From an uncultured Actinomycetes bacterium (GTDB lineage: Bacteria > Actinomycetota > UBA4738 > HRBIN12), in assembly GCA_963731925.1 (NCBI GenBank), contig CAVSXK010000026.1, positions 21,526 through 85,525 on the forward strand: a stretch of DNA of 64,000 bases, in the 5' to 3' direction. The notes under the pieces are model-generated. The model did no database searches, had not been told where the DNA came from, and worked only from the letters and a program-made list of their open reading frames with translations. A program made the position numbers and the translations under genes. Below, in pieces: positions 2,114 through 40,682 of this stretch (positions are counted from its first letter, which is position 1; each line of letters opens with the position of its first letter).

Positions 2114-4632
2114 CCTCGACCGAGGGCTCGGCCGAGTCGACGTACTCGACCGAGAGCACCCTGCCGGCCTCCGCCACGTCGCGCTCGACCCCGCGCAGGA
2201 TCTTCAGCCGCTCCGGCGTGTCCCGAACGATCAGGTGCACGACGTCCGTACGCAGCGAGCGCTTCGCCAGCGCCTTCACCTTGCGTATCTCGCCGAGCGC
2301 CCACGCCGCCACCTCGTAGACGACCGGTTCGCCACCGGCCGGGAACGCTTCGTTCGATGGCCACGCCGACCGATGGATCGAGCCCTGCCGCCACCACGAC
2401 CAGACCTCCTCCGTGGCGTACGGCAGGAACGGCGCGAACAGCCGGAGCAGGACGTCCAGCGCGAACCGCAGCGACGCGATCGCCGATCCCGCGGCCTCGG
2501 GGCCGTGGCCGCCGTACGCGCGTCCCTTCACCAACTCGAGGTAGTCGTCCGTGAACCCCCAGAAGAAGCGCTCGACGAGCTCGAGCGCCCGGGCGTGCTC
2601 GTAGCCTTCGAGCGCGACCGTCGCCCGCTCGACGACGCCGGAGAGCTGGTCGAGCATCGAGCGGTCGAGCGGGTCCGCGATCTCGGCCTCGGTACCCTCG
2701 AGCGACAGGGTGAAGCGCGAGGCGTTCAGGATCTTGATCGCGAGCCGTCGCCCGACCTTGATCTGCTGCTCGTCGAAGGCCGCATCGATGCCGAGTCGCG
2801 CGCTCGCGGCCCAATACCGCACGGCGTCGGCTCCGTGCTGCTCGAGGATGAGCGATCGGGGTCACGACGTTGCCCTTGGACTTCGACATCTTCTTGCGTT
2901 CGGGGTCCAGGACGAACCCGCTGATCGCGGCGTCCGTCCACGGGAGCGAGCCGTGTTCCAGATGCGACTTCAGCACCGTGTAGAACAGCCACGTTCGGAT
3001 GATCTCGTGGGCCTGTGGCCGCAGGTCCATCGGGAAGACCCTGGCGAACAGGTCGGGATCGTCCTCCCAGCCCCCGACGATCTCCGGACTGAGCGAGGAT
3101 GTCGCCCACGTGTCCATGATGTCGGGATCGCCCACGAACCCTCCGGGCTCGCCGCGCTGGTCCTGCGAAAACCCTTCGGGCGTATCGGAGGAGGGATCAA
3201 CCGGAAGCCGATCCTCGCTCGCGACCAACGGATGCTCGTGATCCGCAAGCCCCTCGTCGTCGAGCCGGTACCAGATGGGGAACGGCACGCCGAAGAACCG
3301 CTGACGGCTGACGCACCAGTCCCCATTCAGGCCCTCGACCCATGAGGCGAAGCGGGTTCCCATGGACTCGGGATGCCACCGGATCTGCCGCCCGCGTTCC
3401 AGGAGCTGCTCGCGGAACTCGATCGTCTTCACGAACCATTGGCGGCTCGACACGATCTCGAGCGGCCGTTCGCCGCGCTCGTAGAACTTCACGGAGTGAC
3501 GGACCGGCTTCGGTTCGCCGACGAGATGTCCCGACGCACGGAGGAGGTCCGCAACCTTGGCCCGGGCTTTGCGCGGTGGCAAGCCGGCGAGCTCGTTCTG
3601 CGTCCGTTCCGCGTCTTCGACGTCACGAGATCCCCACCCCGGCTCCCCCCACCGTGACGGCGCGATCTTCCCGTCGCGGCCGATCACGACCCGGGTCGGC
3701 AACCGGAGCTCGCGCCACCACGTGACGTCCGTGAGGTCGCCGAACGTGCAGATCATGGCGACGCCCGTCCCCTTCTCGGGGTCGGCAAGCTCGTGGGCGA
3801 GGATCGGGACCTCCGCGCCGAACAACGGCGTCACGGCCGAAGAGCCGACGACATCCCGGTACCGCTCGTCGGACGGGTTCGCGACCAGAGCCACGCACGC
3901 GGGGATCAGCTCGGGGCGCGACGTCTCGATCTCCACCGAGCCCTGACCGTCCGCGAGGTCGAACCGCACGCGGTGGTAGCGCGCCGTCGATCTCGCGATC
4001 CTCGATCTCCGCCTGGGCAACCGCGGTCTGGAAGTCGACGTCCCACATGGTCGGCGCCTCGACCTGGTAGGCGAGGTCCTTCGAGAGCAGTCGAACGAAC
4101 GAGCGCTGCGAGGCCCGGCGTGAACGCTCGTCGATCGTCGTGTACGTCTGCGCTCCAGTCGACCGACAGGCCGGCGCGACGGAACACCTCTTCGAACGCC
4201 CGCTCATCCTCGGCGGTGAGCCGCTCGCAGAGCTCGATGAAGTTCGGCCGCGAGACCGCGACCAGCTCGCCGTCGGGCCGGTCGAGGGCGTCGACGTCGA
4301 AGCGGGGGTCGTACGGGAGCGACGGATCGCATCGGACGCCGAAGTAGTTCTGCACGCGCCGCTCGGTCGGCAGCCCGTTGTCGTCCCACCCCATCGGATA
4401 GAAGACCGTCTTGCCCCGCATGCGCTGGAAGCGCGCGATCACGTCCGTGTGCGTGTAGGAGCAGCACGTGACCGATGTGCAGGTTCCCGCTCGCGGTCGG
4501 CGGCGGGGTGTCGATCGCGAAGATCTGCTCCCGCGTCTTCGAGCGGTCGAACCGATAGGTGCCGGCGGCCTCCCACCACTCGTCCCATTTCGGCTCCAGG
4601 CCGTCGATCGTCGGCTTCTCGGGCACGTTCAT
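2091..4632 (-). pseudogene. valS: valyl-tRNA synthetase, reading frame interrupted at >=4 sites (about 2850, 3975, 4160, 4450); either a true pseudogene or, more likely for an essential gene, single-base indel errors
   Basis: Five consecutive minus-strand ORF pieces carry the N-terminus [20 protein letters not shown], the HIGH motif ([12 protein letters not shown]), [27 protein letters not shown], the KMSKS motif ([10 protein letters not shown]) and the anticodon-binding C-terminus ([10 protein letters not shown]...). A one-base shift joins HIGHVL to [12 protein letters not shown]. Confidence 0.7.
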
Positions 4633-4717
4633 GCGCGGGAGTCTAAGCGATGGCCGATCGTCGACCGGATGCATACCGTCGGGCTCGGCGTCCGAAGGCG
4701 GTCGTAGACTCGCCGCC

Positions 4718-7700
4718 GTGAATACCTGCGCGGCATGTGGGGCCGAGAATCTCGACGGCGCCCGCTTCTGCTCTTCCTGTGGGGCGTCGCTCGTCCCGTC
4801 GTGTCCGACCTGCGGCGCCGAGGTGCCTCGCGGGGCTCGGTTCTGCCCGGCGTGCGGGTCCGCGCTCGAAGAGCTCGAGCCCGCTCCCCCCGGTGAGGAC
4901 CGGCGCGTGGTGACGATCCTGTTCGCGGATGTGACGAGCTCGACGAGCCTCGGCGAACGCCTGGACCCGGAGCGACTCCAGGAGGTGCTCGGGACGTACT
5001 TCGGAGCGATGCGGGAGGAGATCGAGGCGGAGGGCGGGACGGTCGAGAAGTTCATCGGCGATGCCGTGATGGCGGCGTTCGGCGTGCCGTCCGCACATGA
5101 GGACGACCCGTCGAGAGCCCTCCGGGCTGCCCTGCGGATGCGCGAACGGCTCATCGAGGTCAACGCGGATCTCGAGAGCCGCTTCGGCGTGACGCTCCAG
5201 ATCCGAACCGGCGTGAACACCGGTGAGGTCCTCGCGGCTACCAACCCTCGGCCGGGAGAGCCGATGGTGACGGGCGATGCGGTCAACGTGGCCGCGAGGC
5301 TCGAACAGAGCGCGGACCCAGGGGGGATCGTGGTGGCCGAGCGCACCGCCCGCGCGGCGCGCGGCTTTCGCTTCCGCGAGCTCGGCGACCAGGAGCTCCG
5401 TGGGAAGGAGCAACCGATCCCGGCCGTGGTGCTCGAGGAGCGGACGCCCGGTGCCGACGAACGGGGCGTGCCGGGACTGCATGCTCCGATGGTCGGCCGC
5501 GACCGCGAGCTCGAGCTCCTGAGGAGCCTGTACCAGCGCTCGGCCGAAGAGGGACAACCGAACCTCGTGACGATCTACGGGGACCCCGGGGTGGGCAAGA
5601 GCCGGCTCGTCGCCGAGTTCGTCGCGTGGGCCGAAGGGCTGGACCCGGCCCCCACCATCGTCCGGGGTCGGTGCCTCCCATACGGCGACGGGGTCACGTA
5701 TTGGCCGCTCGCCGAGATCCTCAAGGGGCTCGCGCACATCCGAGACTCCGATGCGACGGAAGTGGCGCTCGAGCATGTCCAACGGCTCGGTGCTGATCTC
5801 ATCACCGTGGACGTCGCGACGAACCCGGAGAAAGCGACGGCCGCGCTCGCCTATAGCATCGGCGTTGAGGATCCAGCGTTCTCTTTCGGATCGATGGAGC
5901 CGCGCGAGGTCAGCCTCAAGATCCACGCAGCGTGGCGTTCGTTGTTCTCTTCGCTCGCGGGCCGAACGCCGGTCGTCGCCGTGATCGATGACATCCATTG
6001 GGCCGATCAGGCGTTGCTCGACCTGTTGGAGGAGCTCGCAGAGCGGGTCGTCGGGCCGATGTTCTTGATCTGTCCTGCGCGTCCGGAACTGACCGAGCGA
6101 CGTCCCGGCTGGGGGGGCGGCAAGCGCAACGTCTCATCGGTCGGCCTCGACCCGCTCACCGCGTTGGAATCAGACCGACTCGTGGGACTGCTGCTGTCGG
6201 TCGCGGATCTGCCGTCATCCGTGCATAGACGGATCCTCGAGCGCGCCGAAGGCAACCCGTTCTTCCTGGAGGAGATCGTCCGCCACCTGATCGACGAGGG
6301 TGTGATCGTCCGAGAAGGGCACCGATGGCGCGCTGCGTCGACCATCGCGGAGGTGCAGATCCCGGACACGGTGCAGGCCGTGCTCGCTGCCAGGATCGAC
6401 CTGCTGGACCCCGTGGAGAAGCGCGCGCTCCAGCGTGCCGCCGTGGTCGGTCGCGTGTTCTGGCCGGGACCCGTTGGACGTCTGCTGAACGGTGACCGAG
6501 ACCGACTGCATTCGACGCTCGATCGTCTGGAGGAGCGCGAGCTGGTTCTGTCGCGGCTCTCCTCCTCGATCGCCGGGGAGCCGGAGTTCATCTTCAAGCA
6601 CATCCTCACCCGCGAGGTCGCCTACGAGAGCCTCCCCCGACGCGAGCGGGCGGGCGCGCACGCGGCGGTCGCGTCGTGGATCGAGGAAACCGCGGGCAAA
6701 CGTGCGAAGGAGTTCGTCGAGCTGCTCGCCTACCACTGTCTCGAGGCGTACCTCGGTGCGAGGGACGATGGGCTCGCGACGCAGGAGGTCGAGGACCTGC
6801 GGCGCCGCGCGTTCGATGCGCTCCTCGGCGTCGCGGGCGAGGCCCATCGTCGATTCGCGATCGCGAAAGCGAACTCGGCGGTCGAGCAGGCGCTGCAGAT
6901 CGCGTCCGGCCCTCTGGAACGCATCGCCGCACTCGAGTGGTTGGGGTTGATCGCTCGAAGCGACTACCGGGGCGACCTGTCGTGGAGGGCGTTCAAGGAA
7001 GCCATCGATCTCCGCCTCCAGCACACACCTCACGACTCGCGAGCGATCGCTTTGGCGTGCGTGAACGGGCTCGAGAACCCTCTCCGATGGCCCGGCTCCA
7101 TGAAGACCTTCCCCGAAGTCGACGAGGTGAAGCGGTACCTCGCGATCTGCGCCGGTCACGTCGGGGACGAGAGAGGTGAGGAGGGGATCCGACTGCTCAC
7201 GGCGCGGGCGTTCCAGCCGTTCGGGTTCGGACCCAGGTCCCACATCGAGCCGGCGGATCGGGAGGAGGCCATCGCCGCCGGGCTCCGGGCCGCAGAACTG
7301 GCACGAGACCTCGGGCGGTTGGACCTGGAGTCGGCAGCGCTTGACGGCGCGGGGTCCGCCATCGTCACGCTCGGGCACTACGGCCGGGGACGCGACATGC
7401 TGGCGAGGCGATTGGAGATCGCGGAGCAGATCGAGGATCCCTGGGAGGCGGGCGATGCCTATGCCATGATCGCGTGGAACGGCGCGATGCTCGGGGATTT
7501 CGCGGGGTCGGTTCGATGGGGACTCCTCGGGCGGGACCGCGCCGAGCATCAAGCCGCGGGAATCGTCGATCACTGCCTGAACTGGGCGGGCACCAGCCTC
7601 TTCCAGCTCGGGGAATGGGACCGCTCGCTGGAGCTTTTCCGAGAGGCCCAAGCGCTCATGGGCGAACGCTCCGACGATCCGCCCTACTTCATGACCAGCC

Positions 7701-8305
7701 TGTTCGGCACGGCGGCGTTCATCCACGAAGCGAGGGGGCTACCAAGTGCGGGAGGCCTCCTCGAGATCCTCGGAGGGATACGCGGATCGGTGCTCGACGT
7801 GGCGACGATGGCGGGTCGTTGGCTCGCTTGGGTCATGGCGCGCAGAGGACAAGTGGATCGGGCTTGGGCACTCGTCCGCGATACGCCGGTCAGATCCGCG
7901 ACCTTCCGGCCGTTCCACGACCAGGCGATCGCGGAGCTCCTCGCCTTGAGCCATCGTTGGGTAGAAGTACCTGCGTTCGTCGAAAGCAGCCGATCGTATG
8001 CGATGGAGGCTGGCCTGCTGGCTCTGCCCGTGCACCTCGATCGCCTCGAGGGACGATCCGCGATCGCGAACGAACAGCTCGAGCGCGGGCTCGAGGCACT
8101 CGAGGATGCTCGCGAGGGGTTCGCCCACCTGGGCGCCACCTGGGAGCGGGCGAGGACCGACCTGGACCTGGCGGATGCCCTTTCGGCCTCCGGTCGGGTC
8201 GAGGAGGCCCGAACGAAGCTCGGCGCGGCCGGCCCCGACCTGGAGCGGGCGGGCGCACTCGTCGAGCTCGATCGGCTGCGCTCGCTCCGCGCCAGGGTGG
8301 CCTGA
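4718..8305 (+). CDS. class III adenylate/guanylate cyclase with N-terminal double zinc ribbon, central AAA/P-loop ATPase and C-terminal TPR region
   Basis: CxxC x4 (CAACG..CSSCG..CPTCG..CPACG); CHD cyclase core VVTILFADVTSST...KFIGDAVMAAFG...NTGEV; P-loop GDPGVGKS; long helical TPR-like tail. Probable GTG start at 4718, in frame with the ORF that begins at 4559 and overlaps valS. Confidence 0.8.
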   Translation: MNTCAACGAENLDGARFCSSCGASLVPSCPTCGAEVPRGARFCPACGSALEELEPAPPGEDRRVVTILFADVTSSTSLGERLDPERLQEVLGTYFGAMREEIEAEGGTVEKFIGDAVMAAFGVPSAHEDDPSRALRAALRMRERLIEVNADLESRFGVTLQIRTGVNTGEVLAATNPRPGEPMVTGDAVNVAARLEQSADPGGIVVAERTARAARGFRFRELGDQELRGKEQPIPAVVLEERTPGADERGVPGLHAPMVGRDRELELLRSLYQRSAEEGQPNLVTIYGDPGVGKSRLVAEFVAWAEGLDPAPTIVRGRCLPYGDGVTYWPLAEILKGLAHIRDSDATEVALEHVQRLGADLITVDVATNPEKATAALAYSIGVEDPAFSFGSMEPREVSLKIHAAWRSLFSSLAGRTPVVAVIDDIHWADQALLDLLEELAERVVGPMFLICPARPELTERRPGWGGGKRNVSSVGLDPLTALESDRLVGLLLSVADLPSSVHRRILERAEGNPFFLEEIVRHLIDEGVIVREGHRWRAASTIAEVQIPDTVQAVLAARIDLLDPVEKRALQRAAVVGRVFWPGPVGRLLNGDRDRLHSTLDRLEERELVLSRLSSSIAGEPEFIFKHILTREVAYESLPRRERAGAHAAVASWIEETAGKRAKEFVELLAYHCLEAYLGARDDGLATQEVEDLRRRAFDALLGVAGEAHRRFAIAKANSAVEQALQIASGPLERIAALEWLGLIARSDYRGDLSWRAFKEAIDLRLQHTPHDSRAIALACVNGLENPLRWPGSMKTFPEVDEVKRYLAICAGHVGDERGEEGIRLLTARAFQPFGFGPRSHIEPADREEAIAAGLRAAELARDLGRLDLESAALDGAGSAIVTLGHYGRGRDMLARRLEIAEQIEDPWEAGDAYAMIAWNGAMLGDFAGSVRWGLLGRDRAEHQAAGIVDHCLNWAGTSLFQLGEWDRSLELFREAQALMGERSDDPPYFMTSLFGTAAFIHEARGLPSAGGLLEILGGIRGSVLDVATMAGRWLAWVMARRGQVDRAWALVRDTPVRSATFRPFHDQAIAELLALSHRWVEVPAFVESSRSYAMEAGLLALPVHLDRLEGRSAIANEQLERGLEALEDAREGFAHLGATWERARTDLDLADALSASGRVEEARTKLGAAGPDLERAGALVELDRLRSLRARVA

Positions 8306-13376: not shown

Positions 13377-13459
13377 CCGTCCGGCGCGGCCGTCCGACAG
13401 ATCGTCCACCGTGGAGGTGAGGTGCACGGGCGTAAGGCTAGCCAGGCTCGGAGGGATCG

Positions 13460-13502
13460 GTCGGGGCGGGCGGATTCGAACCGCCGGCCTCCTGCTCCCA
13501 AA
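13460..13502 (-). repeat. 43-nt direct repeat identical to the 3' half (anticodon loop to discriminator) of tRNA-Pro(TGG); att-like remnant
   Basis: gtcggggcgggcggattcgaaccgccggcctcctgctcccaaa is identical to 22948-22990. The 5' half of a tRNA is absent: no acceptor or D-arm complement upstream. Confidence 0.75.
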
Positions 13503-13590
13503 CCAGAAGCGGCGCAGAGCCGCTACCTGCGGAGACGATCGTTCGCCCTGGTCGGTGCTCGTAACAGGAGTCACACGGGCGCGGTCGAAT

Positions 13591-13807: not shown

Positions 13808-14476
13808 CTACTTGGTGCCGACCTCCAGGGCCACGACCGCGAAGTCGTAGCCAGAGGTCCCGTTGCCCCAGGCGTAGACCTGGTAAGCCGTGCCCTCCTG
13901 CAGATCGAGGACGGCTGGCCCGATCACCGGCGCGTAGTCACCCGGAAGGGAGACCCAGGCCGCGTAGACGCCGGTGGGCACCTTCATCGTGGCGGAGGCG
14001 CCGTTCGGCACGTCCTCGAGCAGCACGGCGCCGTTCGCCCACACGTCGACGGCGGGGGCCGCGGCGGTGTGGCGGACCGTGAGGCGCGCGGTGTCGCTCC
14101 TCAGCGCCTTCACGTTGTTCTTGAACAACCCGAGGGTCGGGCTGCCATCGGCCGTCAGGTATGCGATCGCCGTGTAGTTCTTGTTCCTCGCCAGCTCGAC
14201 GCCGTCGGCCTCGAGGATCGCCTCGTCGTCGCAGGTGTTGCTGGCGGCCACGATCTTGACGTCGTAGGTGCCGGCCGGCAGCGGCACGCCGGTCACGACC
14301 TCGCCGGGGTTGAACTCGGGGATGGCCACGGCCCCGTTCATGCAGACTTCGACGTCCACGCCGGGGATCCCGTGCACGACGTTGAGCGACGCGTCGGCGG
14401 CCGAGGCCGTCCCCACGCCGAGCATCGAGACCGCGAGCGTCGCTGCGACACCGAGTCCCAGGAGTCGCTTCCTCAT
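13808..14476 (-). CDS. secreted DUF4397-like protein
   Basis: 222 aa with signal peptide (MRKRLLGLGVAATLAVSMLGVGTASA), beta-rich and Gly/Val-rich; family assignment from memory. Confidence 0.7.
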   Translation of the reverse strand: MRKRLLGLGVAATLAVSMLGVGTASAADASLNVVHGIPGVDVEVCMNGAVAIPEFNPGEVVTGVPLPAGTYDVKIVAASNTCDDEAILEADGVELARNKNYTAIAYLTADGSPTLGLFKNNVKALRSDTARLTVRHTAAAPAVDVWANGAVLLEDVPNGASATMKVPTGVYAAWVSLPGDYAPVIGPAVLDLQEGTAYQVYAWGNGTSGYDFAVVALEVGTK

Positions 14477-14616
14477 CCTGCTTCCTCCTCTTGCCTCGGG
14501 AGCGGGCCACTCCCGCTCCGTCCTCCCAGGAAGCTACGTGAGGACGCTGCCACAATCCATGCGTAAACCTATGCACTCCGCATTGTTTTCCGTCGGCAAC
14601 GCGGTACCATCTAGGC

Positions 14617-15525
14617 ATGCCTGACCCGAACGGAACCTCGAAGCCGGGCGTGCCCATCGCCACCGTGTCGAAGACGCTCGACATCCCGGTCCCCACCATC
14701 CGCTCCTGGGAGCGACGGTACGGCTTCCCCGCGCCGCCCCGGACGGACGGCCGGCATCGCCGCTACACCCCCCGCGAGATCGAGCAGCTCCGCAACCTCC
14801 GCGATCTCATCACGCGCGGGCACTCGGCCCGCGAGGCCGTCGCGCGCCTGAGCGCCGCACCGTCGCGGGCCGACGGCGGGGATCTCGTCGAACAGCTGAT
14901 CGACGCCGCGATGCGTCTGGACAGCGACGGGGTGCGCGGGGCGCTGGATGGCTCGGCCGAACGGCTCGGGGTCGAGGGCGCGATCCGCGACGTGATGTTC
15001 CGCGCGATGCGGGAGATCGGGACGCGGTGGAAGACCGGAACCTGCGACATCGAGCAGGAGCACCTCGCGAGCGAGGCGGTACGGGCGTGGCTCGCCCGCC
15101 AGAGGGCGATGGCGCCGCCCCCGTTCCGGCCGGATCCGATCGTCCTCGCGTGCGGTCCAAAGGACCTCCACACGATCGGGCTCGAGGCGTTCGCCGTCGT
15201 CCTCGCCCGGCGGGGCTGGCCCCTGCGGATGCTCGGCGCGATGACACCCGCCCCCTCGCTCCTCTCGGCGGTCCGAACCGTCCGCGCGGCGGTGGTGGTG
15301 GTGATCTCCCAGCGCGGTGTCACGCGCCGGGCGGCGATCGAGTCCCTCGCGGGGGTCGACGCCGTGCCGGGCGTCAGGGCGTTCTATGCGGGGGACGCGT
15401 TCGTCGCGGCGTCCGCTCGGCGCGACGTCCCCGGCACGTACCTGGGGGAGGACGTGGTCCAGGCGGCCGAGCTGCTTGAGTCCGCCCTCACGCGGCCCCG
15501 GTCCAGCCGGAGCGCGGCGCGCTAG
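14617..15525 (+). CDS. carH: CarH/LitR-type MerR-family transcriptional regulator with B12-binding domain (light-sensing photoreceptor regulator)
   Basis: MerR HTH (VSKTLDIPVPTIRSWERRYGFP); Wx9EH motif (WKTGTCDIEQEH); canonical B12-binding DxHxxG (DLHTIG). Confidence 0.85.
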   Translation: MPDPNGTSKPGVPIATVSKTLDIPVPTIRSWERRYGFPAPPRTDGRHRRYTPREIEQLRNLRDLITRGHSAREAVARLSAAPSRADGGDLVEQLIDAAMRLDSDGVRGALDGSAERLGVEGAIRDVMFRAMREIGTRWKTGTCDIEQEHLASEAVRAWLARQRAMAPPPFRPDPIVLACGPKDLHTIGLEAFAVVLARRGWPLRMLGAMTPAPSLLSAVRTVRAAVVVVISQRGVTRRAAIESLAGVDAVPGVRAFYAGDAFVAASARRDVPGTYLGEDVVQAAELLESALTRPRSSRSAAR

Positions 15526-16826
15526 GTCGCGACCGGGACGATCGGCTCCGGGTAGCCGGAGCCGCGGAGCAGCGCCGGGTCCTTCCACGGGGTGAAGACC
15601 AGGGGCGCCTGGACGCCGCGGAGCTCCTGGACGTACCGACGAATGTACGCGCCGCTCGGGTCGTACCGCCTGGCCTGCCGGACGGGATTCAGGGTCCGGG
15701 TTCGGCGGGGATCGGTGCCCGTGCCCGCCGCCCACTGCCAATTGCCGGCGTTGTTCGCGGGGTCCGCGTCGATCAGCAGACGTGAGAAGTGGCGTTCGCC
15801 CCGCTGCCACGGCACCCCGAGGCGCCGCGTCAGGAACGAGGCGGCCACGAGCCGCGCCCGGTTGTGCATCCACCCCTCGCGCAGCAGCTGGCGCATCCCG
15901 GCGTCGACGAGCGGGAGCCCGGTCCGACCTTCGCGCCAGGCGGCCAGCGCGCGATCCTCCGGCACCGGAGGCCCGGAGATCCCCACCGGGTCCCGGAGGC
16001 TCCGCCACGCGAGCGCCGGGTCCTCCGCTAGGAGCTGCAGGAAGAAGTCGCGCCACGCCAGCTGCCGGACGAACGGCTCGGCGGCGGCGGCGTTCGCGCG
16101 TATCGCCACCTCGTTAGCCGAAACGCACCCGAACCGCAGATAGGGAGACAGGCGCGACGTGGCCTCGACCGCGAGGTCGTCCCGTCCCTCCGCATAGCCC
16201 CCGAGCTCGCGTCCGAGGAAAGCGTGGAGGCGCCGCCGCCCGACGCGCTCGCCGCCACGGGCGACGTCGACCGCGTCGGGCGTGACCGATACCGGGTCCG
16301 GTCGCGGGCCCGGCTCCAGATCGCCCGGGACGATGACCCGCCGCGGCGCGGGCAGAAGGTCACCCGGCGGTCGCTGCCTCCAGGCGCGGAAGTACGGGGT
16401 GAACACGCGATACGCGTTCGCCCGCGGGAGCCCGCCGGGCTCGAAGACGGCGCTCTCGGGGAAGACCCGCAGGTCGAGCCGCGCCCGCTCGCAGGCCTCG
16501 GCGAGCTGGCGCTCGCGGCGTCGGGCGTAGGCGCTCGCGTCCCCCGTCACGAAGATCGCCGAGCAGCCCGCCTCGATCGCGACCGTCATCGCCTCTTCGA
16601 CCACCGCCCCCCGGCGGACGAACAGCCGGCCGTCGAGTCGTTCGAGCGAGCGATCCAGGTCGACGAGGCTCTCGAGCAGGAACCGGTCGCGGTTCGCCGA
16701 GGTCTCGAGGAGCCCCGGGTCCAGCACGAAGAGCGGGACGATCTCGGAGGCCGTCCGGCACGCCTCGGCGAGCGCGGGGTGATCGTGGACACGCAGGTCA
16801 CGCGTGAACAGGACGAGGATCCGCAT
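15522..16826 (-). CDS. phr: deoxyribodipyrimidine photolyase (CPD photolyase)
   Basis: 434 aa; photolyase/cryptochrome FAD-binding motifs (...WREGRTGLPLVDAGMRQL...GWMHNRARLVAASFL...DADPANNAGNWQWAAGTGTD). Confidence 0.9.
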   Translation of the reverse strand: MRILVLFTRDLRVHDHPALAEACRTASEIVPLFVLDPGLLETSANRDRFLLESLVDLDRSLERLDGRLFVRRGAVVEEAMTVAIEAGCSAIFVTGDASAYARRRERQLAEACERARLDLRVFPESAVFEPGGLPRANAYRVFTPYFRAWRQRPPGDLLPAPRRVIVPGDLEPGPRPDPVSVTPDAVDVARGGERVGRRRLHAFLGRELGGYAEGRDDLAVEATSRLSPYLRFGCVSANEVAIRANAAAAEPFVRQLAWRDFFLQLLAEDPALAWRSLRDPVGISGPPVPEDRALAAWREGRTGLPLVDAGMRQLLREGWMHNRARLVAASFLTRRLGVPWQRGERHFSRLLIDADPANNAGNWQWAAGTGTDPRRTRTLNPVRQARRYDPSGAYIRRYVQELRGVQAPLVFTPWKDPALLRGSGYPEPIVPVAT

Positions 16827-16899
16827 GGGTTCGACTGTAGGGGTCTCATGTCGCCATCGGGTCCCCGAACCCGTGCAACCTGGCCGGGCCGATCCGTGA

Positions 16900-17730
16900 T
16901 CAGTCGGCGGACGCCAACGTCCCCGCGAAGATCTGCCACGCCAGCGCGGACTTGGCCACCAGACTGAGGAGCATGTAGACGCGCTCCCCGAACAGGTAGT
17001 CCTTCCACCGCCCGATCTGCCGGTACTGCAGCCATTGGTTCACGGCGAACGACATGAAGAACACGAACAGTGAGACGAAGATCGCGTAGACGAACCCCGG
17101 TGCCTGCGCGTCCGTGCCGATCCCGGCGAGGTACAGCCCGATCGCGATCCACGGGACGACCCCGATCAGGCTCCCGAGCCAGAACGGCAGCATGCCCCCG
17201 CCGGGGCGCTCGTACCGCTCCTGCAGCAAGCCGAACAGGATCATCGCCGCGTTGGCCCCGAGGATCGCGATCACGGCGGCCACGTCGGTAATGCCGGGGA
17301 GCAGCGCGATCAGCACCGCCATGAGCGACGCGCTCACCGAGTACTCGATCCACCGGAAGTCGTTGCGCCCCACCAACAGCATCCGCCGGTACCGCGGGAA
17401 CCCCAGCGGCGAGGCGATCAGGAAGTGCGCGATCGCCGAGATCAACAGGAAGGCGGCCACCGCCCACGCCACGCGCAGGTCGAACAGCGTGACCGTCTCC
17501 GACGCGGAGCCCGGCGGGCCGGTGAGCGGGTGGATGACGATCGGGATCGTGAACCCGGTCGCGAGGATGAGGATCAGCACGCCCTGCGCCGCGTGCAGGA
17601 GGCCGAGGGCGAGGTTGACGCCCCGCAAGCGGCCGATGCGGCTCGAGACCTCGGCCTCCGAGGCGCCCGGGAACAGCAGCTCGCGAAGATCCTCGCGCGA
17701 AGCGGCGCTCATCGGAACCGCTCCCTGCAT
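16900..17730 (-). CDS. heliorhodopsin
   Basis: 276 aa, 7TM; strong similarity to heliorhodopsin 48C12 as recalled from memory (FRWIEYSVSASLMAVLIAL.., ..LPFWLGSLIGVVPW.., ..ERVYMLLSLVAKSALAWQIFAGTL with the retinal Schiff-base Lys in SLVAKSALAW). Possible alternative start at M7 (17712) with better RBS (GGGAG). Confidence 0.88.
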   Translation of the reverse strand: MQGAVPMSAASREDLRELLFPGASEAEVSSRIGRLRGVNLALGLLHAAQGVLILILATGFTIPIVIHPLTGPPGSASETVTLFDLRVAWAVAAFLLISAIAHFLIASPLGFPRYRRMLLVGRNDFRWIEYSVSASLMAVLIALLPGITDVAAVIAILGANAAMILFGLLQERYERPGGGMLPFWLGSLIGVVPWIAIGLYLAGIGTDAQAPGFVYAIFVSLFVFFMSFAVNQWLQYRQIGRWKDYLFGERVYMLLSLVAKSALAWQIFAGTLASAD

Positions 17731-17779
17731 CGTGGGAGCTCTTGGTCTTCATGGTCCCATCTCCTTCCGTCGCACGGCT

Positions 17780-17796
17780 CCTCGGCGGCGCCGAGG
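17780..17796. other. perfect 17-bp GC palindrome abutting the CFA-synthase stop codon in the CFAS-heliorhodopsin spacer
   Basis: cctcggcg-g-cgccgagg; could be an intercistronic terminator or attenuator hairpin, or a dimeric-regulator operator. Confidence 0.3.
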
Positions 17797-17797
17797 G

Positions 17798-19051
17798 TCA
17801 TGCAGCTTCGAGGACGATCTGGCTCACGTCGGTACGTCCTGCCCGGAACCCTCCCTCGCAGTACGAGAGGTAGTACTGCCACATCCGCTTGAAGCGCTCA
17901 TCGAACCCGAGACCGGCGATGGCGGGCCACGACGCGTCGAAGCGCCGACGCCACTCGGCCAGGGTGAGCGCGTACGACGACCCGTAGCCCTGCATCGCCG
18001 TGATCCGCAACCCAGCGGCCGCAGCGTCGGCCCGCAGCACGCCGGGCGAGGGCACCTGGCCCCCGGGGAAGACGTAGCGGCGGATGAAGTCGGGGTTCGC
18101 GTCCGAGGACGCCCAGTGCCGGTCCGCCACCGTGATGGCCTGCAGGCCGATCCGCCCGCCCGGACCGAGACGGTCCGCGAGCGCGCGGAAGTACTCGACC
18201 CACCGGGTTCGCGGGATCGACTCGATCATCTCGATCGACACGATCGCGTCGTAGGTGCCGGGGGTCCGCGCGAAGTCCTCGAGGCGCACCTCCACGCGAT
18301 CGCCGAGCCCTCGGTCGGCCATCAGCTTCTCCACCCACGTCGCCTGCTCCCCCGACACCGTCACCGTGCTCACGGTGCACCCGAGCTCGCCGGCCGCGAA
18401 GGCGGCGAACCCACCCCATCCGGAGCCCACCTCGAGGACCCGCATCCCCGCTCGCAGGCCGGCGGCCCGCGCGATGCGCAGGTACTTCTCCCGCTGCGCC
18501 TCCTCCAGAGACATGTCCTCGCGCGCGAACACGGCCGACGAATACGTCATCGACCCGTCCAGCCACTCGCGGAAGAATGCGTTGCCGAGGTCGTAATGCT
18601 CCACGGGGGTCCGGAGCGGACCTCGCGGTGTGCTGGCGCGGCCGATCCATCGCCAGGCGGCGCGCCCGGCGCGGTCGAGGACGACGGGGATCCGGGGGCG
18701 ATGGTCCCGCTCCAGGTGCAGCGCCCCGAGCTCGATCACGGACGCCAGGTCGGGTGAGTCGAACTCGCCGGCGATCCAGCCGTCGGCCAGCCCGATCGCG
18801 CCCGTGGAGAGGAGCCGTCGGATCACGCGTTCGTCGCGCAGGTCCACCTCGGCGTCGGGCCCCGGCAGCCTTCCGGTGTACGTGCGCATCGAGCCGTCAG
18901 GGAACCGCACCCGGAGGGTCCCGGTACGGAGCAGCCGGCCGGCGAGCCGGTCCAGGAGCCACCGCTCGGCGCTCACGTCCCCACCCCCACCGGTCCGCGC
19001 TCGATCGTCACGAGGTGGTCCGGGGTCGGGCCGTGGCGGCGGAACGGGGCC
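17798..19051 (-). CDS. cyclopropane-fatty-acyl-phospholipid synthase family SAM-dependent methyltransferase (UfaM/UfaO-like)
   Basis: SAM-binding VLEVGSGWGG and CFA-synthase C-terminus (...QYYLSYCEGGFRAGRTDVSQIVL); start approximated at an internal GTG; overlaps DUF1365 stop. Confidence 0.8.
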   Translation of the reverse strand, partial: GPVPPPRPDPGPPRDDRARTGGGGDVSAERWLLDRLAGRLLRTGTLRVRFPDGSMRTYTGRLPGPDAEVDLRDERVIRRLLSTGAIGLADGWIAGEFDSPDLASVIELGALHLERDHRPRIPVVLDRAGRAAWRWIGRASTPRGPLRTPVEHYDLGNAFFREWLDGSMTYSSAVFAREDMSLEEAQREKYLRIARAAGLRAGMRVLEVGSGWGGFAAFAAGELGCTVSTVTVSGEQATWVEKLMADRGLGDRVEVRLEDFARTPGTYDAIVSIEMIESIPRTRWVEYFRALADRLGPGGRIGLQAITVADRHWASSDANPDFIRRYVFPGGQVPSPGVLRADAAAAGLRITAMQGYGSSYALTLAEWRRRFDASWPAIAGLGFDERFKRMWQYYLSYCEGGFRAGRTDVSQIVLEAA

Positions 19052-19761
19052 CCCTTGCGCCACAGGCGAAGGGCCTCCCAGTGGATCCCGCCGAGCACCT
19101 TGAGCGTGACCATCGGGTGGGTGGCGAACACCCGCCACAGGCCGAACCGCCCGAGCTCGCGACGCATCGCCACCAGCGTCGCCGTCAGCACCTGGCCGGC
19201 GGCGACGTGCTCGCGGACGATCAGGGCCGCTCGGTCGTCGGGCGGGCGCACGCGGAAGTCGTACGTCGCCTCTTGGTCGATGAACGGCGACACGAAGAGC
19301 TCCTTGCCGAACACGTGCCGGGCGTTCCCCGCGGGATCGAGCCCGTCGACCCTCGCGAGGTGATGGTGCCACTGCCCGAAGGTGTTCGACACCTCGTAGA
19401 GCACCGCCCGGAGGTCACCCCCCGGCCCGTATCCGAACCACACCGAGATCGGGTTGAATACGTGCCCGAGGACCCTCGGCAGGGTCAGGATCCGGACGGG
19501 TCCACCCTCGAGGTCGATCCCTGCCTCCCGCAGGTAGCCCTCGAGCCACGGGCGCAGCGGCGACCCGTCGCGCGGCCCGTGGTCGCGATCCCAGAACGCG
19601 AACGGGGCCGCGCGGTTGTGACCGAACCCGGCCGCCGAGCGATCCAGCTCGTCGACCTCGTCCAGGTCCAGCCACAGGTAGTACACGCCGTAGGAGAAGC
19701 GGTGCGTCGCCGGGAAGAAGCGGCGATGCATGACGGTCCCAACGTACAGAGCGCTGTTCAT
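18973..19761 (-). CDS. DUF1365 family protein
   Basis: MNSALYVGTVMHRRFFPATHRFSYGVYYLWLDLDE... typical DUF1365; flanked by amine-oxidase-like and CFAS-like genes as recalled for RSP_1087-1091-type clusters. Confidence 0.8.
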   Translation of the reverse strand: MNSALYVGTVMHRRFFPATHRFSYGVYYLWLDLDEVDELDRSAAGFGHNRAAPFAFWDRDHGPRDGSPLRPWLEGYLREAGIDLEGGPVRILTLPRVLGHVFNPISVWFGYGPGGDLRAVLYEVSNTFGQWHHHLARVDGLDPAGNARHVFGKELFVSPFIDQEATYDFRVRPPDDRAALIVREHVAAGQVLTATLVAMRRELGRFGLWRVFATHPMVTLKVLGGIHWEALRLWRKGAPFRRHGPTPDHLVTIERGPVGVGT

Positions 19762-21060
19762 GCGGCGATCGCACCCACGAGAGCGGGCGGCCTCGGCATG
19801 ACGCCCCATGGTGCCGGCGCACCGAGGGCCGCGGCCACGTCCAGGCCGGAGCGCAGTCCGTCCTCGTGGAAGCCGTGCCCGCACCAGGCGCCGGCGAACC
19901 ACGTGCGACGGCCCCCCTGGATCGCCGGGAGCGAGCGCTGCGCGTCGAGGGCTGCCCGGTCGAACTGCGGGTGCACGTACCCGAACCGCTGCACCTCGCC
20001 TCGGGGGTCGCGGATCGGGTTGAGCGTGACGAAGACTGGCCGCTCGGTCCGCAGGTTCTGCAGCCGGTTCATCCAGTACGTGAGCGACACCGGCTTGGAT
20101 CGATCGGGCTGACCGCGCCCGTCGGCGAGGTAGTTCCAGCTGGACCACACGGCCCGGCGCCGGGGCATCAAGGCGGGATCGCGATGCAGCACGGCCTCGT
20201 TGTCCTGGTAGCGGATGGCCCCGAGGACGTGGCGCTCGCGCAGCGTCGCCTCGGAGCCGAGGATCTGGAGCGTGGTGTCGGGATGGGTGGCGAACACCAC
20301 CTCGTCGAACCGGTCGAGCCCACCTGACGCGTCGAGCACCTCGACGCCGTCCTCGTCCCGGCGGACGGCCACCACCCGCGCCGAGAGACGGATCCGATCC
20401 CGATAGCCGGCGGTCAGCCGCCGCACGTACTCCCGGCTCCCTCCGCTCACGGTTCGCCACCGTGGGCGCGCCCGCACCTGGAGGATGTCATGGCTCGAGA
20501 GGAAGCCGACCAGCGTGGTCACGGGGAACTCGAGCATGTCGTCGAGCCCGGACGACCAGATGGCGGCGCTCACGGGGAGCAGCAGGTCCAGGCGGAACTC
20601 GTCGCCGTAGCCACCGCCGCTCCAGATACGAGCCAAGCGACTCGCGCGTTCCGGACGCCAGGACCCGCGGCGCGTCTCGACAGAACCGCCGGAAGTCCCG
20701 CAGCATCCGCCAGGTCCCCGGTCGGATCGCGTTGGACGGCTGCGCGAGCAGGCCGCGGGCCCGGCTCTGGTACTCGAACGAGCCACCGCCCACCGACACC
20801 GAGAAGGACATGTCGCTCCACTCGGTCGGGACCTCGAGCACATCGAACAGGCGGACGAGGTTCGGGTAGTTCCGTTCGTTGTAGACGATGAACCCGGTGT
20901 CGACCGGGACGAGACCTCCCTCGTCCTCCACGTCGACCGTGTTCGAGTGCCCGCCGATCCGCGCCTCGGACTCGTACAGGACCACCTCGTGACGGTGGTC
21001 CAACGCCCACGCGGCGCCCATCCCGGCGATGCCGCCGCCGATGACCCCGATCCTCGCCAT
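19758..21060 (-). CDS. FAD/NAD(P)-binding amine-oxidase-like oxidoreductase (UfaD-like), interrupted by a single +1 frameshift near 20625
   Basis: N-terminus MARIGVIGGGIAGMGAAWAL (Rossmann GxGxxG) in one frame, remainder (..GGYGDEFRLDLLLPVSAAIWSS.. to ..TWFAGAWCGHGFHEDGL) in another; an extra T in cggcggTggctacggc. Confidence 0.75.
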
Positions 21061-21197
21061 GGCCCGACGGTAGAGTCGGATAGCGCCCGCTGCATCGTTT
21101 CGGCCCCCATGTGCATAGGTTCGGCAGAGGTTGGCAGAGGGCCCCGGGACGTACCGTCCGGGGTATGGATCGGATCACTCCTCGACGGCGGAGGCCC

Positions 21198-22211
21198 TCA
21201 CGCGCTGGTGGCTCGGCTCGGGCCGACCTCGCTCGCCGACGTGCTCAGCCGCTCGCACGCGCGCCACAGCCGGCGCGCATCTCGGTCGTCCACGCGGGTG
21301 CCGAGGAGTCGGTCGACCGGGCGGGCTCCACGGTCCAGCCAGAACCTGCCGGTCGTGCGCGCGGGTTCCTCCGACGCAACGAGCCAGACGATCGTGTCCG
21401 CGCCCTCCTCGGGCGTTCGGAGCCTGGGCCCGATCAGCCGGTGGAACGTCGGGAGCGAGGCGACGACGCCCGGGGTGTCGGCCCATCCGGGGTGCATCGC
21501 GTTGACCGTGATGGCCCGGCCCCGCAGTCTTCGGGACCACTCGCGGGTGAGGGTGACCAGCGCCCGCTTCGCCCTCGCGTAGGCGATGCTCCCCCGGTAC
21601 GACTCGCGCTCCATCTGCAGGTCGTCCAGGTGGAGCCCCTGCAGGTACATGCCCCCGGAGGCGACGTTGACGACGCGCGCGACGCCGGCGTTCCCGGCGG
21701 TGCGCTCGAGGAGCGGCACGAGGCCGTTCGTGAGGACGAAGGGCCCGAGCACCATCGTGGTGAACGTCATCTCGTAGCCGTCGACGGAGACCCGGCGCTC
21801 GGGCAGGAGCGCGCCCGCGTTGTTGACGAGCGCGTCGAGCCGTTCCTCGGACTCGGCCATCTGATCGGCGACCCGCCGGACGGCGGCGGGGTCGCTGAGG
21901 TCGAGCGTGTACGTCGCGACCTCGGCGCCGGGAGCGACCTGCAGGACCGACTCGCGCGCCCGCGCGGCCTTGCCCTCGTCGCGGACCAGGAGTCGCAGCC
22001 CGGCACCCATCTTCGCCAGGCGCGTCGCCGCGGCCAGGCCGAGGCCCGAGCTCGCTCCCGTGATCGCCACGACGCGACCCGTCAGGTCGAGGCGGTCGAG
22101 GTCTTCCCAGTCGAACAAGGACGAACGGATCATCGGACCGAGGTCCGTGAAGCTCAGGACCACGGACGCCTCGATCACCTCGTCGGCCAGCCGCCTGAGA
22201 TCGACCATCAC
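21198..22211 (-). CDS. short-chain dehydrogenase/reductase (SDR) family oxidoreductase
   Basis: TGASSGLG cofactor motif, NNAG, catalytic Y-x3-K (YARAK); first gene of the minus-strand lipid-modification operon. Confidence 0.8.
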   Translation of the reverse strand: MMVDLRRLADEVIEASVVLSFTDLGPMIRSSLFDWEDLDRLDLTGRVVAITGASSGLGLAAATRLAKMGAGLRLLVRDEGKAARARESVLQVAPGAEVATYTLDLSDPAAVRRVADQMAESEERLDALVNNAGALLPERRVSVDGYEMTFTTMVLGPFVLTNGLVPLLERTAGNAGVARVVNVASGGMYLQGLHLDDLQMERESYRGSIAYARAKRALVTLTREWSRRLRGRAITVNAMHPGWADTPGVVASLPTFHRLIGPRLRTPEEGADTIVWLVASEEPARTTGRFWLDRGARPVDRLLGTRVDDRDARRLWRACERLSTSASEVGPSRATSA

Positions 22212-22306
22212 AGCTCCCTGAAAGTCCCCTCCCCTCTCTTGACGCTAGCAGCGACGGGTGCCCATCCGATCCCACGAACCGATGCACAGGACAAGGAGGC
22301 CGGAAG

Positions 22307-22744
22307 ATGACCGTACTGAACGAGGAGCTGAAGGTGAGCCGACCACTCGACGAGGTCTTCGGACTGGTCGGCGACTTCGCGAACGCCGAGGTCTGGGATC
22401 CCGGCGTGGAGGAGTCCCGAGCCATCACCGAGGGACCGGTGCGCGTCGGGAGCCGGTACGAGCTGACCGTCGTGTTCAACGGCCGCCGCCTGCCGATGAC
22501 CTACGAGGTCACGGCGTTCGACCCTCCGCGCCGCGTCGAGCTGGTCGGGACGGGTTCGACAGTGGACGCGCGGGACGACATCCGATTCGAGGCGACCGAT
22601 GAAGGGACGAGGATCCTCTACATGGCCGATCTTCGGCTCAAAGGGGTGCTCCGCTTGATAGAGCCGCTCCTGCGATCGAAGTTCGAGCAGGTCGGCCGCC
22701 GGGCGATGGAGGGGATGCGCGCGGCGTTCGAGGCCAAGCCCTGA
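22307..22744 (+). CDS. SRPBCC (START/Bet v1/polyketide-cyclase-like) domain protein
   Basis: 145 aa; good RBS AAGGAGG; divergently transcribed from the SDR gene. Confidence 0.8.
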   Translation: MTVLNEELKVSRPLDEVFGLVGDFANAEVWDPGVEESRAITEGPVRVGSRYELTVVFNGRRLPMTYEVTAFDPPRRVELVGTGSTVDARDDIRFEATDEGTRILYMADLRLKGVLRLIEPLLRSKFEQVGRRAMEGMRAAFEAKP

Positions 22745-22753
22745 GGCAAGACT

Positions 22754-22921
22754 TCACAGAAGAGTGCGGACGCGCGGTCGGCAACCGAGGCCTCGAGGTG
22801 CCAGGAGGAACCGCTTGCGATCGAGCCCACCGGCGTACCCCGTCAGCGAGCCTTCGCTGCCGATCACCCGGTGGCAGGCCACGACGATGCCGATCGGGTC
22901 TGGGACGACGGTCTGGTGGAC
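22754..22921 (-). pseudogene. ogt: remnant of the C-terminal about 55 aa of O6-alkylguanine-DNA alkyltransferase (ogt/MGMT), N-terminal two-thirds missing
   Basis: ..[33 protein letters not shown] matches the MGMT active-site region (PCHRV...GYAGG..K..LL). Only about 50 nt separate it from the tRNA-Pro 3' end, too few for the missing N-terminal domain. Confidence 0.55.
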
Positions 22922-22947
22922 GGCGAAAGCATAACGGGGGGCCTCTA

Positions 22948-22990
22948 CCGGGGTTTTGTCGGGGCGGGCGGATTCGAACCGCCGGCCTCC
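22948..22990 (-). repeat. second copy of the 43-nt direct repeat (inside the tRNA-Pro gene)
   Basis: Identical to 13460-13502. Confidence 0.75.
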
Positions 22991-23022
22991 TGCTCCCAAA
23001 GCAGGCGCGCTGCCAGGCTGCG
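22949..23022 (-). tRNA. tRNA-Pro (anticodon TGG)
   Basis: Cloverleaf folded by eye: acceptor CGGGGCG/CGCCCCG, anticodon stem CCTGC/GCAGG, loop TTTGGGA, T-arm GGCGG-TTCGAAT-CCGCC; CCA not encoded. Confidence 0.85.
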
Positions 23023-23173
23023 CTACGCCCCGTCCGATGGATGCTAACGCGCCAGCCGGACGGGAGCGTCCAGGATCGAGAGCGAGAGCGTGACCCGCTC
23101 CGCTCGGGCGGGCCCGCGCACGCGCCTCGATCCGGTTCGGTCCAATGGTCACGGGTGATACAAAGGGGACCCG

Positions 23174-32082: not shown

Positions 32083-32514
32083 TCAGGCCGACGCCATCGA
32101 TCCCTCGGTCACTTCCCCCTTGTGCGCCGCGAAGGCCGCCAGGACTTCATCCTTCTCGCGCGGAGGGACCCCGAAGTGATCGAGCGTGCGTCCCAGCTCA
32201 GCCGCGACCTCGTCGAACTCCTCGGGGGCGATGTGGAGGTCGCGATGGGCCTCCTCCAGCCCGAGGGGGGTGCTTCCCGGCTTCGTGGCTGAAAACGAGA
32301 AGGGTCCACCGGCGACGTTGCAGACCCACAGCGTGCGCATGAACTTCAGCCCGGGGAGCCGGTCCAGCTGGTTGGTATGCCATTCACGAAGCTCGGGGTT
32401 CTTCGATGCTTGGCCGACGATCGGGTTCTGGACGACCGCATCGCTGAAGTGGTCGATCACCGCAGCGATGGCGAACACGCCACCCAATCGTTCGTACAGG
32501 CTCGGCTCAGCCAT
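32083..32514 (-). CDS. glbO: group II truncated hemoglobin (trHbO)
   Basis: 143 aa MAEPSLYERLGGVFAIAAVIDHFSDAV...W.TNQ... Confidence 0.85.
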   Translation of the reverse strand: MAEPSLYERLGGVFAIAAVIDHFSDAVVQNPIVGQASKNPELREWHTNQLDRLPGLKFMRTLWVCNVAGGPFSFSATKPGSTPLGLEEAHRDLHIAPEEFDEVAAELGRTLDHFGVPPREKDEVLAAFAAHKGEVTEGSMASA

Positions 32515-32645
32515 CGTCCTTCTCCTCTCTTCATCACTCCCTCATCACGAGTCAGAGGATCGGAAGGAGGACCTCGCGTTGGCGACCGGGAGTGACGCAT
32601 AGGATGCCCTTTTATGAAGGGTTTAGAGGCTAGGAAGCCTCTTTA

Positions 32646-36792: not shown

Positions 36793-36861
36793 CGCGCCAT
36801 CCTACGCCGCCGTTCGCGGCCGGGACCGCCGTCGTTTGCGCACGGGACCTCGGGCTGCGAC

Positions 36862-40540: not shown

Positions 40541-40682
40541 CGCGTCCAGCGTACCTACGTGACGACGGGTGAGGAAGGGGTTCACGATCGGGCGTAACGT
40601 GCACCCGCGTGTCACGTTCTGCGGACACGCACGGACGAGGCCACGAGGCCCGGCGAAGGAGAACCCGATCGACGATCAGAGC

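Follow-up and report, generated by a model that had tools for sequence, protein, structure and literature searches.

A divergent CarH/LitR-like protein of uncultured Actinomycetota and its predicted regulon of photoprotection and photorepair genes

The CarH proteins of Myxococcus xanthus and Bacillus megaterium and the class I LitR proteins are adenosylcobalamin (AdoCbl)-dependent, light-inactivated repressors that regulate their own genes and occupy large operators over sigma-A promoters (PMC8156234; PMC9758184). In Thermus CarH, the His that follows the conserved Trp forms a bis-His photoproduct. Control by Streptomyces LitR runs via a partner extracytoplasmic function (ECF) sigma factor, LitS (PMC11519972), and class II LitR proteins are repressors whose sites, with the hexamer TGTACA, lie over the −35 box (PMC9758184). 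The Rhodobacter sphaeroides genes RSP1091-1087, encoding UfaD, UfaO/DUF1365, a CFA-synthase-like protein and a short-chain dehydrogenase/reductase (SDR), make furan fatty acids that scavenge singlet oxygen (PMC7380195). As to heliorhodopsin (HeR), one study lists photolyase, a MerR-family regulator and SDR among its ten most frequent neighbors (Cho et al., 2024, PMC11109279), and another shows that a HeR stimulates a photolyase (TfHeR-photolyase; Shim et al., 2022, PMC9769723). Here we analyzed a carH/litR-like gene and its surroundings in a 64,000-nt stretch (the window; all positions are counted from its first letter) of contig CAVSXK010000026.1, assembly GCA_963731925.1, from an uncultured soil Actinomycetes bacterium. 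Judged by sequence patterns and by analogy with the family, this gene is likely to encode a class I CarH/LitR photoreceptor-repressor that controls photoprotection and photorepair genes, including those for photolyase (phr), HeR and lipid-modifying enzymes, through GAACCYATGCA operators.

The gene, the domains of its product and the diagnostic motifs are located as follows.
14617–15525, plus strand: carH/litR-like gene, 302 aa (open reading frame [ORF], Pfam, PDB alignment and structural model)
Residues ~13–80, ~85–164 and ~175–292 of the 302-aa protein: DNA-binding domain, four-helix bundle and Rossmann-like B12 subdomain, respectively
15028–15063, plus strand: codons of the Wx9EH motif, WKTGTCDIEQEH, W138 to H149 (Trp codon 15028–15030, Glu and His codons 15058–15063)
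15163–15180, plus strand: DLHTIG codons, D183-x-H185-x-x-G188, read from the sequence

The ORF has a strongly coding composition (GC content at third codon positions, 0.93), and exactly the same protein, in the same DUF4397/carH/phr layout, is encoded on six independently assembled metagenomic contigs. An earlier note made from the DNA letters alone had assigned the protein to the CarH/LitR B12 photoreceptors on the basis of a MerR helix-turn-helix, a Wx9EH motif and a DxHxxG motif. All three are present, and Pfam returned MerR_1 (47 bits) and B12-binding_2 (48 bits) above their cutoffs together with MerR at 35 bits. The best sequence matches in the PDB were T. thermophilus CarH/LitR (TtCarH; 5C8D and 3WHP; E = 1e-29 over residues 10–282, ~30% identity). 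In this alignment W138, E148 and H149 fall on W131, E141 and H142 of TtCarH, and H185 corresponds to H177, its lower axial ligand; mapping by hand places G200 on G192 and P167 on G160, a position that is often Pro. The AlphaFold (AF2) model, built on an alignment of 24 homologs (61–97% identity), is confident (pLDDT 85.4) and contains a Rossmann-like subdomain with strands at 175–179, 203–205, 226–230 and 254–258 that carries the His loop. When the model was compared with the PDB by Foldseek, the top 50 matches consisted of TtCarH structures and, in addition, two chains from a MerR-family B12-binding domain of Chloracidobacterium, and the cobalamin-binding domain superposed on CarH structures with TM-scores of 0.82–0.87 and root-mean-square deviations of 2.2–3.7 Å.

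The sequence features that discriminate CarH, namely RxWERRY, an intact Wx9EH and D/ExHxxG, were taken from Perez-Castano et al. (PMC9304148). The recognition-helix motif R29-S-W-E-R-R-Y35 is invariant in the 24 homologs, as are W138, E148, H149, D183, H185, G200 and P167; because the motif residues are unchanged down to 61% identity, their presence is more than chance. On account of its architecture, fold and discriminating motifs, we place the protein in the class I CarH/LitR family, within a divergent actinobacterial subclade whose AdoCbl binding and light response would follow from the family. The assignment in the earlier note is thus supported, with its B12 and light components resting on this kinship. 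The protein adds a new member to a family already known, the mechanism of which is left as it stands. Some homologs are annotated as corrinoid methyltransferase proteins (MtbC/MtgC); this identity was ruled out for the window protein by the score of the MtgC corrinoid-protein model (23.7 bits against a 370-bit cutoff) and by the MerR domain, with which the database name ‘MtbC1 corrinoid protein’ given to some carH homologs also conflicts. The B12-independent LitR classes II–V were ruled out by the Rossmann-like B12 subdomain, and a CarA-type protein was ruled out on the basis set in PMC9304148, the Wx9EH Trp being present and invariant.

The candidate operator was derived from a sample of 80 loci with carH homologs, drawn from bacterial genomes, all of them metagenome-assembled genomes of Actinomycetota. 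Alignment of the regions upstream of carH in close relatives revealed a shared sequence, CCATGCGTAAACCTATGCACTCCGCATTG, with the unit AACCYATGCR, which occurs 12 times in the window at ≤1 mismatch versus 3.9 ± 2.2 times in shuffles. Within the 260 bp upstream of carH the element is found at 6.35/kb, ~46-fold above the 0.136/kb in the remainder of the 80 loci, and 70 of the 80 are positive. A seed-free 7-mer enrichment across the same loci gave, as top words, only tiles of GAACCTATGCAT; CTATGCA alone is 63-fold enriched and occurs in 55 loci (p = 5e-83). We then scanned the window with a position weight matrix (PWM) built from the 80 loci alone, the window being excluded from training. Eight of the nine best sites fell inside four intergenic regions of a cluster of light-related genes: those of carH/DUF4397, of phr, of the UfaD-like/DUF1365/CMAS(/HeR) operon, and of SDR/SRPBCC.
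14553–14589, unstranded: predicted CarH operator of the divergent carH/DUF4397 region, three elements
14553–14564, plus strand: element, 12.7 bits, carH/DUF4397
14565–14576, plus strand: element, 18.9 bits, carH/DUF4397
14578–14589, minus strand: element, 11.7 bits, carH/DUF4397, overlapping the −35 box
16821–16832, minus strand: element, 14.4 bits, upstream of phr, covering the start codon and transcription start site (TSS)
16867–16878, plus strand: element, 12.6 bits, upstream of phr
21090–21101, minus strand: element, 15.8 bits, upstream of the lipid operon, overlapping the −35 position
21111–21122, minus strand: element, 19.5 bits, upstream of the lipid operon
22276–22287, plus strand: element, 16.5 bits, SDR/SRPBCC intergenic region
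32595–32606, minus strand: element-like site, 12.7 bits, upstream of a globin gene

The earlier note had pointed to 14477–14616, 17731–17797 and 22212–22306 as places to look for shared direct-repeat operators. The element was found in the first and the last, and also in 16827–16899 and 21061–21197, which had not been listed; in 17731–17797, directly upstream of HeR, the best element scored 2.6 bits and no leaderless promoter pattern was seen. The ninth site, at 32595–32606, is located 80 bp upstream of a gene for a bacterial-like globin (32083–32514, minus strand) beside an HTH_20/V4R regulator. A site of ≥9 bits was present in just 2 of 32 related metagenomic loci, and because of this lack of conservation we treated it as chance or strain-specific and rejected it as a regulon site.

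GAACCYATGCA is a recurrent pattern, and we predict that it is the CarH operator. The sequence AACCTATGCAC fits the CarH repeat consensus nAnnTnnACAn (PMC8156234) at A2, T5, C9 and A10, with a mismatch at position 8. Copies of the element are preferentially arranged in tandem at 12 or 21 bp, convergently at 6 or 13–14 bp, or divergently at 18–20 bp, the convergent 6-bp arrangement forming a perfect palindrome, GAACCYATGCATRGGTTC. The GAAC at its start resembles the −35 cores of ECF sigma factors, so that the element might be an ECF −35 box, or the site of some other regulator, with CarH acting elsewhere. We consider this very improbable. Two or three copies of the element occur, in either orientation and variably spaced, and it forms perfect palindromes, unlike a promoter box, and it accompanies carH in the 70 positive loci whatever the neighbors. 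Moreover, the promoters concerned have sigma-A-type TANNNT −10 boxes, the element resembles the known CarH repeat consensus, and no other regulator is conserved across the 80 loci. The reading as an ECF −35 box was rejected outright because of the variable strand and copy number and the palindromic forms.

The predicted operators overlap promoters in a stereotyped manner. In 49 of the 80 loci a TANNNT hexamer is found 5–7 nt, mostly 6 nt, before the carH start codon, and the elements take fixed positions such as −65, −53 and −40, the last of which covers the −35 box. Most of the 80 loci have two to three elements overlapping the −35 box of the carH promoter. A sigma-70 consensus scan detected nothing in the 13.5–23 kb region of the window, and the promoters below were deduced from the conserved TANNNT-N6-start pattern.
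14583–14610, plus strand: putative carH promoter, TTGTTT-N16-TACCAT-N6-ATG, with the −10 box ending 6 nt before the ATG
16821–16878, unstranded: phr promoter/operator in the 73-bp HeR-phr gap, −10 box TACAGT at 16834–16839, N7 before the ATG
21067–21122, minus strand: lipid operon promoter/operator, −10 box TACCGT at 21067–21072, N6 before the ATG at 21060

The short distance between the hexamer and the start codon, seen in the window as leaderless-type TANNNT boxes 6–7 nt before the starts (14605–14619, 16824–16839 and 21058–21072), points to leaderless mRNAs as the rule for the carH regulon, and the pattern confirms ATG 14617 as the start codon of carH. Placement of the element over the −35 box or the TSS fits repression by promoter occlusion, as for CarH elsewhere (PMC8156234).

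The genes around carH, named by Pfam and NCBIfam, are arranged as follows.
13808–14476, minus strand: secreted DUF4397 gene, divergent from carH, predicted regulon member (Pfam)
15522–16826, minus strand: DNA photolyase gene (phr), overlapping carH tail-to-tail by 4 nt (Pfam/NCBIfam)
16900–17730, minus strand: HeR gene (profile match, 313 bits)
17798–21060, minus strand: Ufa-like lipid operon with 4-nt start/stop codon overlaps (PMC7380195)
17798–18976, minus strand: CMAS-type methyltransferase (Pfam/NCBIfam)
18973–19761, minus strand: DUF1365/UfaO-like protein (Pfam/NCBIfam)
19758–21060, minus strand: UfaD-like flavin adenine dinucleotide (FAD) amine oxidase, frameshifted near 20617
21198–22211, minus strand: SDR, RSP1087-like, divergent from the SRPBCC gene (Pfam)
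22307–22744, plus strand: SRPBCC/polyketide-cyclase-like protein, predicted regulon member (Pfam)

The carH promoter region is shared divergently with the DUF4397 gene, as the earlier note had stated, and the N-terminus of the DUF4397 protein is by inspection a Sec-type signal peptide (MRKR..TASA|AD). Its observation that the stop codons of carH and phr overlap likewise stands: TAG of carH at 15523–15525 and the opposite-strand phr stop at 15522–15524 share the tetranucleotide CTAG, which is repeated in independent assemblies with the identical protein. The tail-to-tail pair, overlapping or abutting, is kept in 13 loci, and in two others the two genes point away from each other. We rejected the idea of a terminator or a special RNA fold at this junction, as fold energies equaled those of shuffles (z −0.9 and +0.5) and a terminator consensus scan gave no relevant match. 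The heliorhodopsin, phr and Ufa-like genes, which had been taken for a single operon, do not form one: the minus-strand genes make up at least three units, namely SDR, oxidase-DUF1365-CMAS followed by HeR after a 67-nt gap, and phr with its own promoter. Neither an operator nor a promoter precedes HeR itself, and the gene is probably transcribed together with the upstream lipid genes. In a Pfam survey of ~60 ORFs the window contains neither phytoene synthase nor lycopene cyclase, in agreement with the claim that carotenoid genes are absent; its sole Amino_oxidase-family gene sits in the UfaD/UfaO-like context, and the remainder includes housekeeping genes, cytochrome-c maturation genes and others. 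Rfam detected no riboswitch in the window, the cobalamin riboswitch included.

We compared the window proteins with the 80 loci by tblastn. Beside carH homologs of 52–93% identity, phr, SDR/oxidase/DUF1365/CMAS, SRPBCC, DUF4397 and HeR recur in varying orders and orientations, and the rearrangement breakpoints coincide with the operator-bearing intergenic regions. All called genes were clustered, and members with an upstream element of ≥11 bits were counted in each family: CarH (56/70), DUF4397 (13/16), oxidase (AmOx; 8/13), Phr (7/12), fasciclin-domain protein (6/6), SDR (5/8), SRPBCC (5/6) and FtsX-type permease (8/15). Common neighbors from unrelated families (aminotransferase, RACo, MttB and TetR) are absent from the site-bearing clusters listed. 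HeR lies inside operator-controlled operons in four further arrangements: fasciclin-HeR-DUF2867 divergent from carH (L012), HeR-carH (L045 and L056) and SRPBCC-HeR-carH (L069). The secreted fasciclin-domain gene, found at 8447–8980 of L003, 5280–5864 of L012 and in four more loci, has an operator upstream in all six cases; like DUF4397, its product is extracytoplasmic and a predicted member of the light regulon.

From these patterns we predict a regulon consisting of carH itself, DUF4397, phr, the UfaD-like/DUF1365/CMAS operon with HeR at its end, SDR and SRPBCC. This set appears to serve photoprotection and photorepair, and not the carotenoid pathway. The regulon guessed in the earlier note (the HeR/phr/Ufa-like genes, DUF4397 or both) is supported by the shared element and by the same genes bearing it beside carH elsewhere, except that no operator precedes HeR.

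In lineages of 53–65% identity, carH homologs adjoin an MttB-family methyltransferase with RACo and DUF1638, or methylmalonyl-CoA mutase (L021, L020, L044, L048, L051, L058 and others). We count these AdoCbl-dependent mutase and MttB/RACo corrinoid neighbors as a B12 link in favor of an AdoCbl-binding photoreceptor. The same neighborhood would also suit a sensor of cobalamin availability, in which the B12-bound protein responds to cofactor supply and light is incidental. Such a sensor is very improbable: no B12-enzyme gene is among the gene clusters listed with an upstream element, for which reason MttB/RACo and methylmalonyl-CoA mutase were rejected as regulon members, whereas the genes that do bear the element belong to photobiology (photolyase, heliorhodopsin and singlet-oxygen-type lipid genes). 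In addition, Wx9EH is specific for the photolabile adenosyl form (PMC9304148).

Several points weigh against the photoreceptor-repressor assignment. Pfam B12-binding (PF02310) scored 26.3 bits, below its cutoff of 32.1, and the NCBIfam equivalog NF052513, ‘HTH-type transcriptional repressor CarH’, scored 122.5 bits against a cutoff of 400; by this measure the window protein is a homolog and no equivalog of the NF052513 seed proteins. The distal part of the classic B12 motif deviates: x41-SxT/V reads I230-S231-Q232, so that I230 occupies position +42 after G188 and the Ser, which is S or A across the clade, is one residue off, and the GG of x22-27-GG corresponds to A258-G259, which is not conserved. 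The His following Trp in TtCarH is Lys139, and the positions of the Arg-Asp dimer salt bridge of TtCarH are, by manual mapping, L184 and M209. At the level of the locus, the operator geometry is unlike the three tandem 11-bp repeats of Thermus, genes for cobalamin synthesis, adenosylation and uptake/transport were not found in the window by the Pfam survey, and a frameshift interrupts the UfaD-like gene as assembled here. The frame is split by a 1-nt insertion near 20617 (CCACCGCCGC vs CCACCG-CGC in L164 and L001). Because the sister assembly L165 splits phr instead, which suggests that these assemblies are error-prone, the insertion is probably an assembly indel rather than a sign of a pseudogene.

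The divergent distal motif and dimer salt bridge and the subthreshold PF02310 score would also fit a CarA-like, B12-independent repressor with the same fold and operators, derepressed by another signal or an antirepressor; M. xanthus CarA is a precedent for this fold working without B12 (PMC8156234). However, CarA is without the Wx9EH Trp (PMC9304148), whereas W138, E148, H149 and H185 are invariant here in the 24 homologs, and across the 80 loci carH has no conserved companion gene, CarS-like or otherwise, which makes a CarA-like protein very improbable. Even taken together, the non-operator, cobalamin-sensor and CarA-like explanations are unlikely, and we favor the AdoCbl-dependent photoreceptor-repressor.

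The sequence evidence covers the protein family, the repeated promoter-overlapping element and the recurrent gene set; AdoCbl-dependent oligomerization, dark binding, light-induced dissociation and derepression would be properties shared with the family. In the dark, AdoCbl-loaded CarH would oligomerize, probably to a tetramer by analogy with Thermus and Bacillus CarH, and the oligomer would occupy clusters of 11–12-nt GAACCYATGCA elements over the −35 box or TSS of mostly leaderless promoters. UV-to-green light would cleave the Co-C bond and cause the oligomer to fall apart, and the promoters freed in this way would allow derepression of the regulon. Through the operator at its own promoter, carH would be autoregulated.

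The light-related cluster is bracketed by tRNA-Pro sequences.
13453–13511, unstranded: partial tRNA-Pro copy, 3′ half, a 59-nt direct repeat 90% identical to 22951–23009
22958–23032, minus strand: intact tRNA-Pro(UGG), which with the partial copy brackets a 9.4-kb cluster

Contigs with the identical CarH protein (97–98% DNA identity) share this block but differ in the flanks. Homology to L166 starts exactly at 13460. L164, with 97.5% identity over the cluster, has a 5.2-kb insertion (2140–7362) that separates the partial-tRNA repeat from DUF4397; this cassette encodes a copper P-type ATPase and a CsoR-type repressor and contains small ORFs. The L164 sequence diverges again at 22910. L001, a 93%-identical relative, aligns from 13689 only. 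The cluster looks like an island, although neither an integrase nor, in the last 428 bp of L164, a tRNA was seen. A 67-aa fragment of O6-methylguanine-DNA methyltransferase (PF01035, model positions 29–77 of 81) at 22757–22957 on the minus strand, between SRPBCC and tRNA-Pro, represents a truncated remnant where the block ends.

A broader proposal, which we make tentatively and with slightly more doubt than confidence, is that a B12 photoreceptor controls the transcription of HeR: on sensing UV-to-green light, CarH would turn on a compact photoprotection module of photolyase, HeR as a possible helper of the photolyase, furan-fatty-acid-type lipid enzymes and secreted DUF4397 and fasciclin proteins, and the module would travel as shuffled cassettes, here as the 9.4-kb tRNA-Pro-bracketed block. 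If true, this would assign HeR to a light-stress regulon that is defined and testable, and the block would be a self-regulating, possibly mobile ‘light island’.

Elsewhere in the window, a valyl-tRNA-synthetase-like gene is split across frames at 2094–4203, which may be a frameshift, and one long frame at 34012–36801 joins an amidohydrolase and an aldehyde dehydrogenase, by frameshift or as same-frame adjacent genes. Cyclic-nucleotide signaling genes are located at 4559–8305, 36008–37312 and 40569–42401; they encode a 1248-aa zinc-ribbon/adenylate-cyclase/AAA_16 protein and two proteins with cyclic nucleotide monophosphate-binding domains, one of which is a fusion with an MFS transporter.

Most of what is known of CarH/LitR proteins concerns the switching of carotenoid genes. 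The present clade, widespread in uncultured soil Actinomycetota, appears to directly control photolyase, singlet-oxygen-type lipid remodeling, secreted proteins and heliorhodopsin, a protein of still debated function that is hereby linked to a defined light-stress regulon. The analysis provides an explicit operator sequence and a promoter architecture on which experiments can build and may add a natural CarH/operator pair for optogenetics. In the searchable literature, we found neither an actinobacterial MerR neighbor of HeR described as a B12 photoreceptor with a defined operator nor heliorhodopsin placed in a B12-photoreceptor regulon. In the accessible parts of the HeR literature, the MerR neighbor is not identified as a B12 photoreceptor, and HeR figures as a protein-protein modulator rather than as the transcriptional target of a light sensor.

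The closest structural counterpart is T. thermophilus CarH/LitR (5C8D, 5C8E and 3WHP), which combines the same MerR DNA-binding domain, four-helix bundle and Rossmann B12 subdomain and has an operator that is likewise composed of ~11-nt repeats over the −35 box, the window element agreeing with nAnnTnnACAn at four of five positions. The window differs in having repeats 12 bp apart plus an inverted copy instead of three tandem 11-bp repeats, in Lys for the His after Trp, in the missing Arg-Asp salt bridge and in the unconserved SxV and GG. Its predicted regulon comprises phr, HeR and lipid genes, whereas crtB is the target in Thermus. As far as is known, the phr gene of Thermus is controlled only indirectly, through LdrP. 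M. xanthus and B. megaterium CarH and class I LitR control carotenoid genes, in contrast to the window, where no crt genes occur, and unlike in Streptomyces no LitS-like sigma factor was found at the locus. The module of FAD oxidase, DUF1365, CMAS and SDR is shared with the photo-oxidative stress response of the R. sphaeroides sigmaE-ChrR regulon (PMC7380195), which is governed not by a direct photoreceptor-repressor but by an ECF sigma/anti-sigma pair sensing singlet oxygen. In content, the predicted regulon strongly resembles that of class II LitR in Pseudomonas putida and P. mendocina (PplR1 and PmlR2), where phrB, ufaM (a furan-fatty-acid gene) and genes of unknown function are controlled, and the TGTACA hexamer has its counterpart in TATGCA of the window element. 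Class II LitR, however, has no Rossmann B12 subdomain and needs a LOV photoreceptor partner, whereas the window protein keeps the full B12 module.

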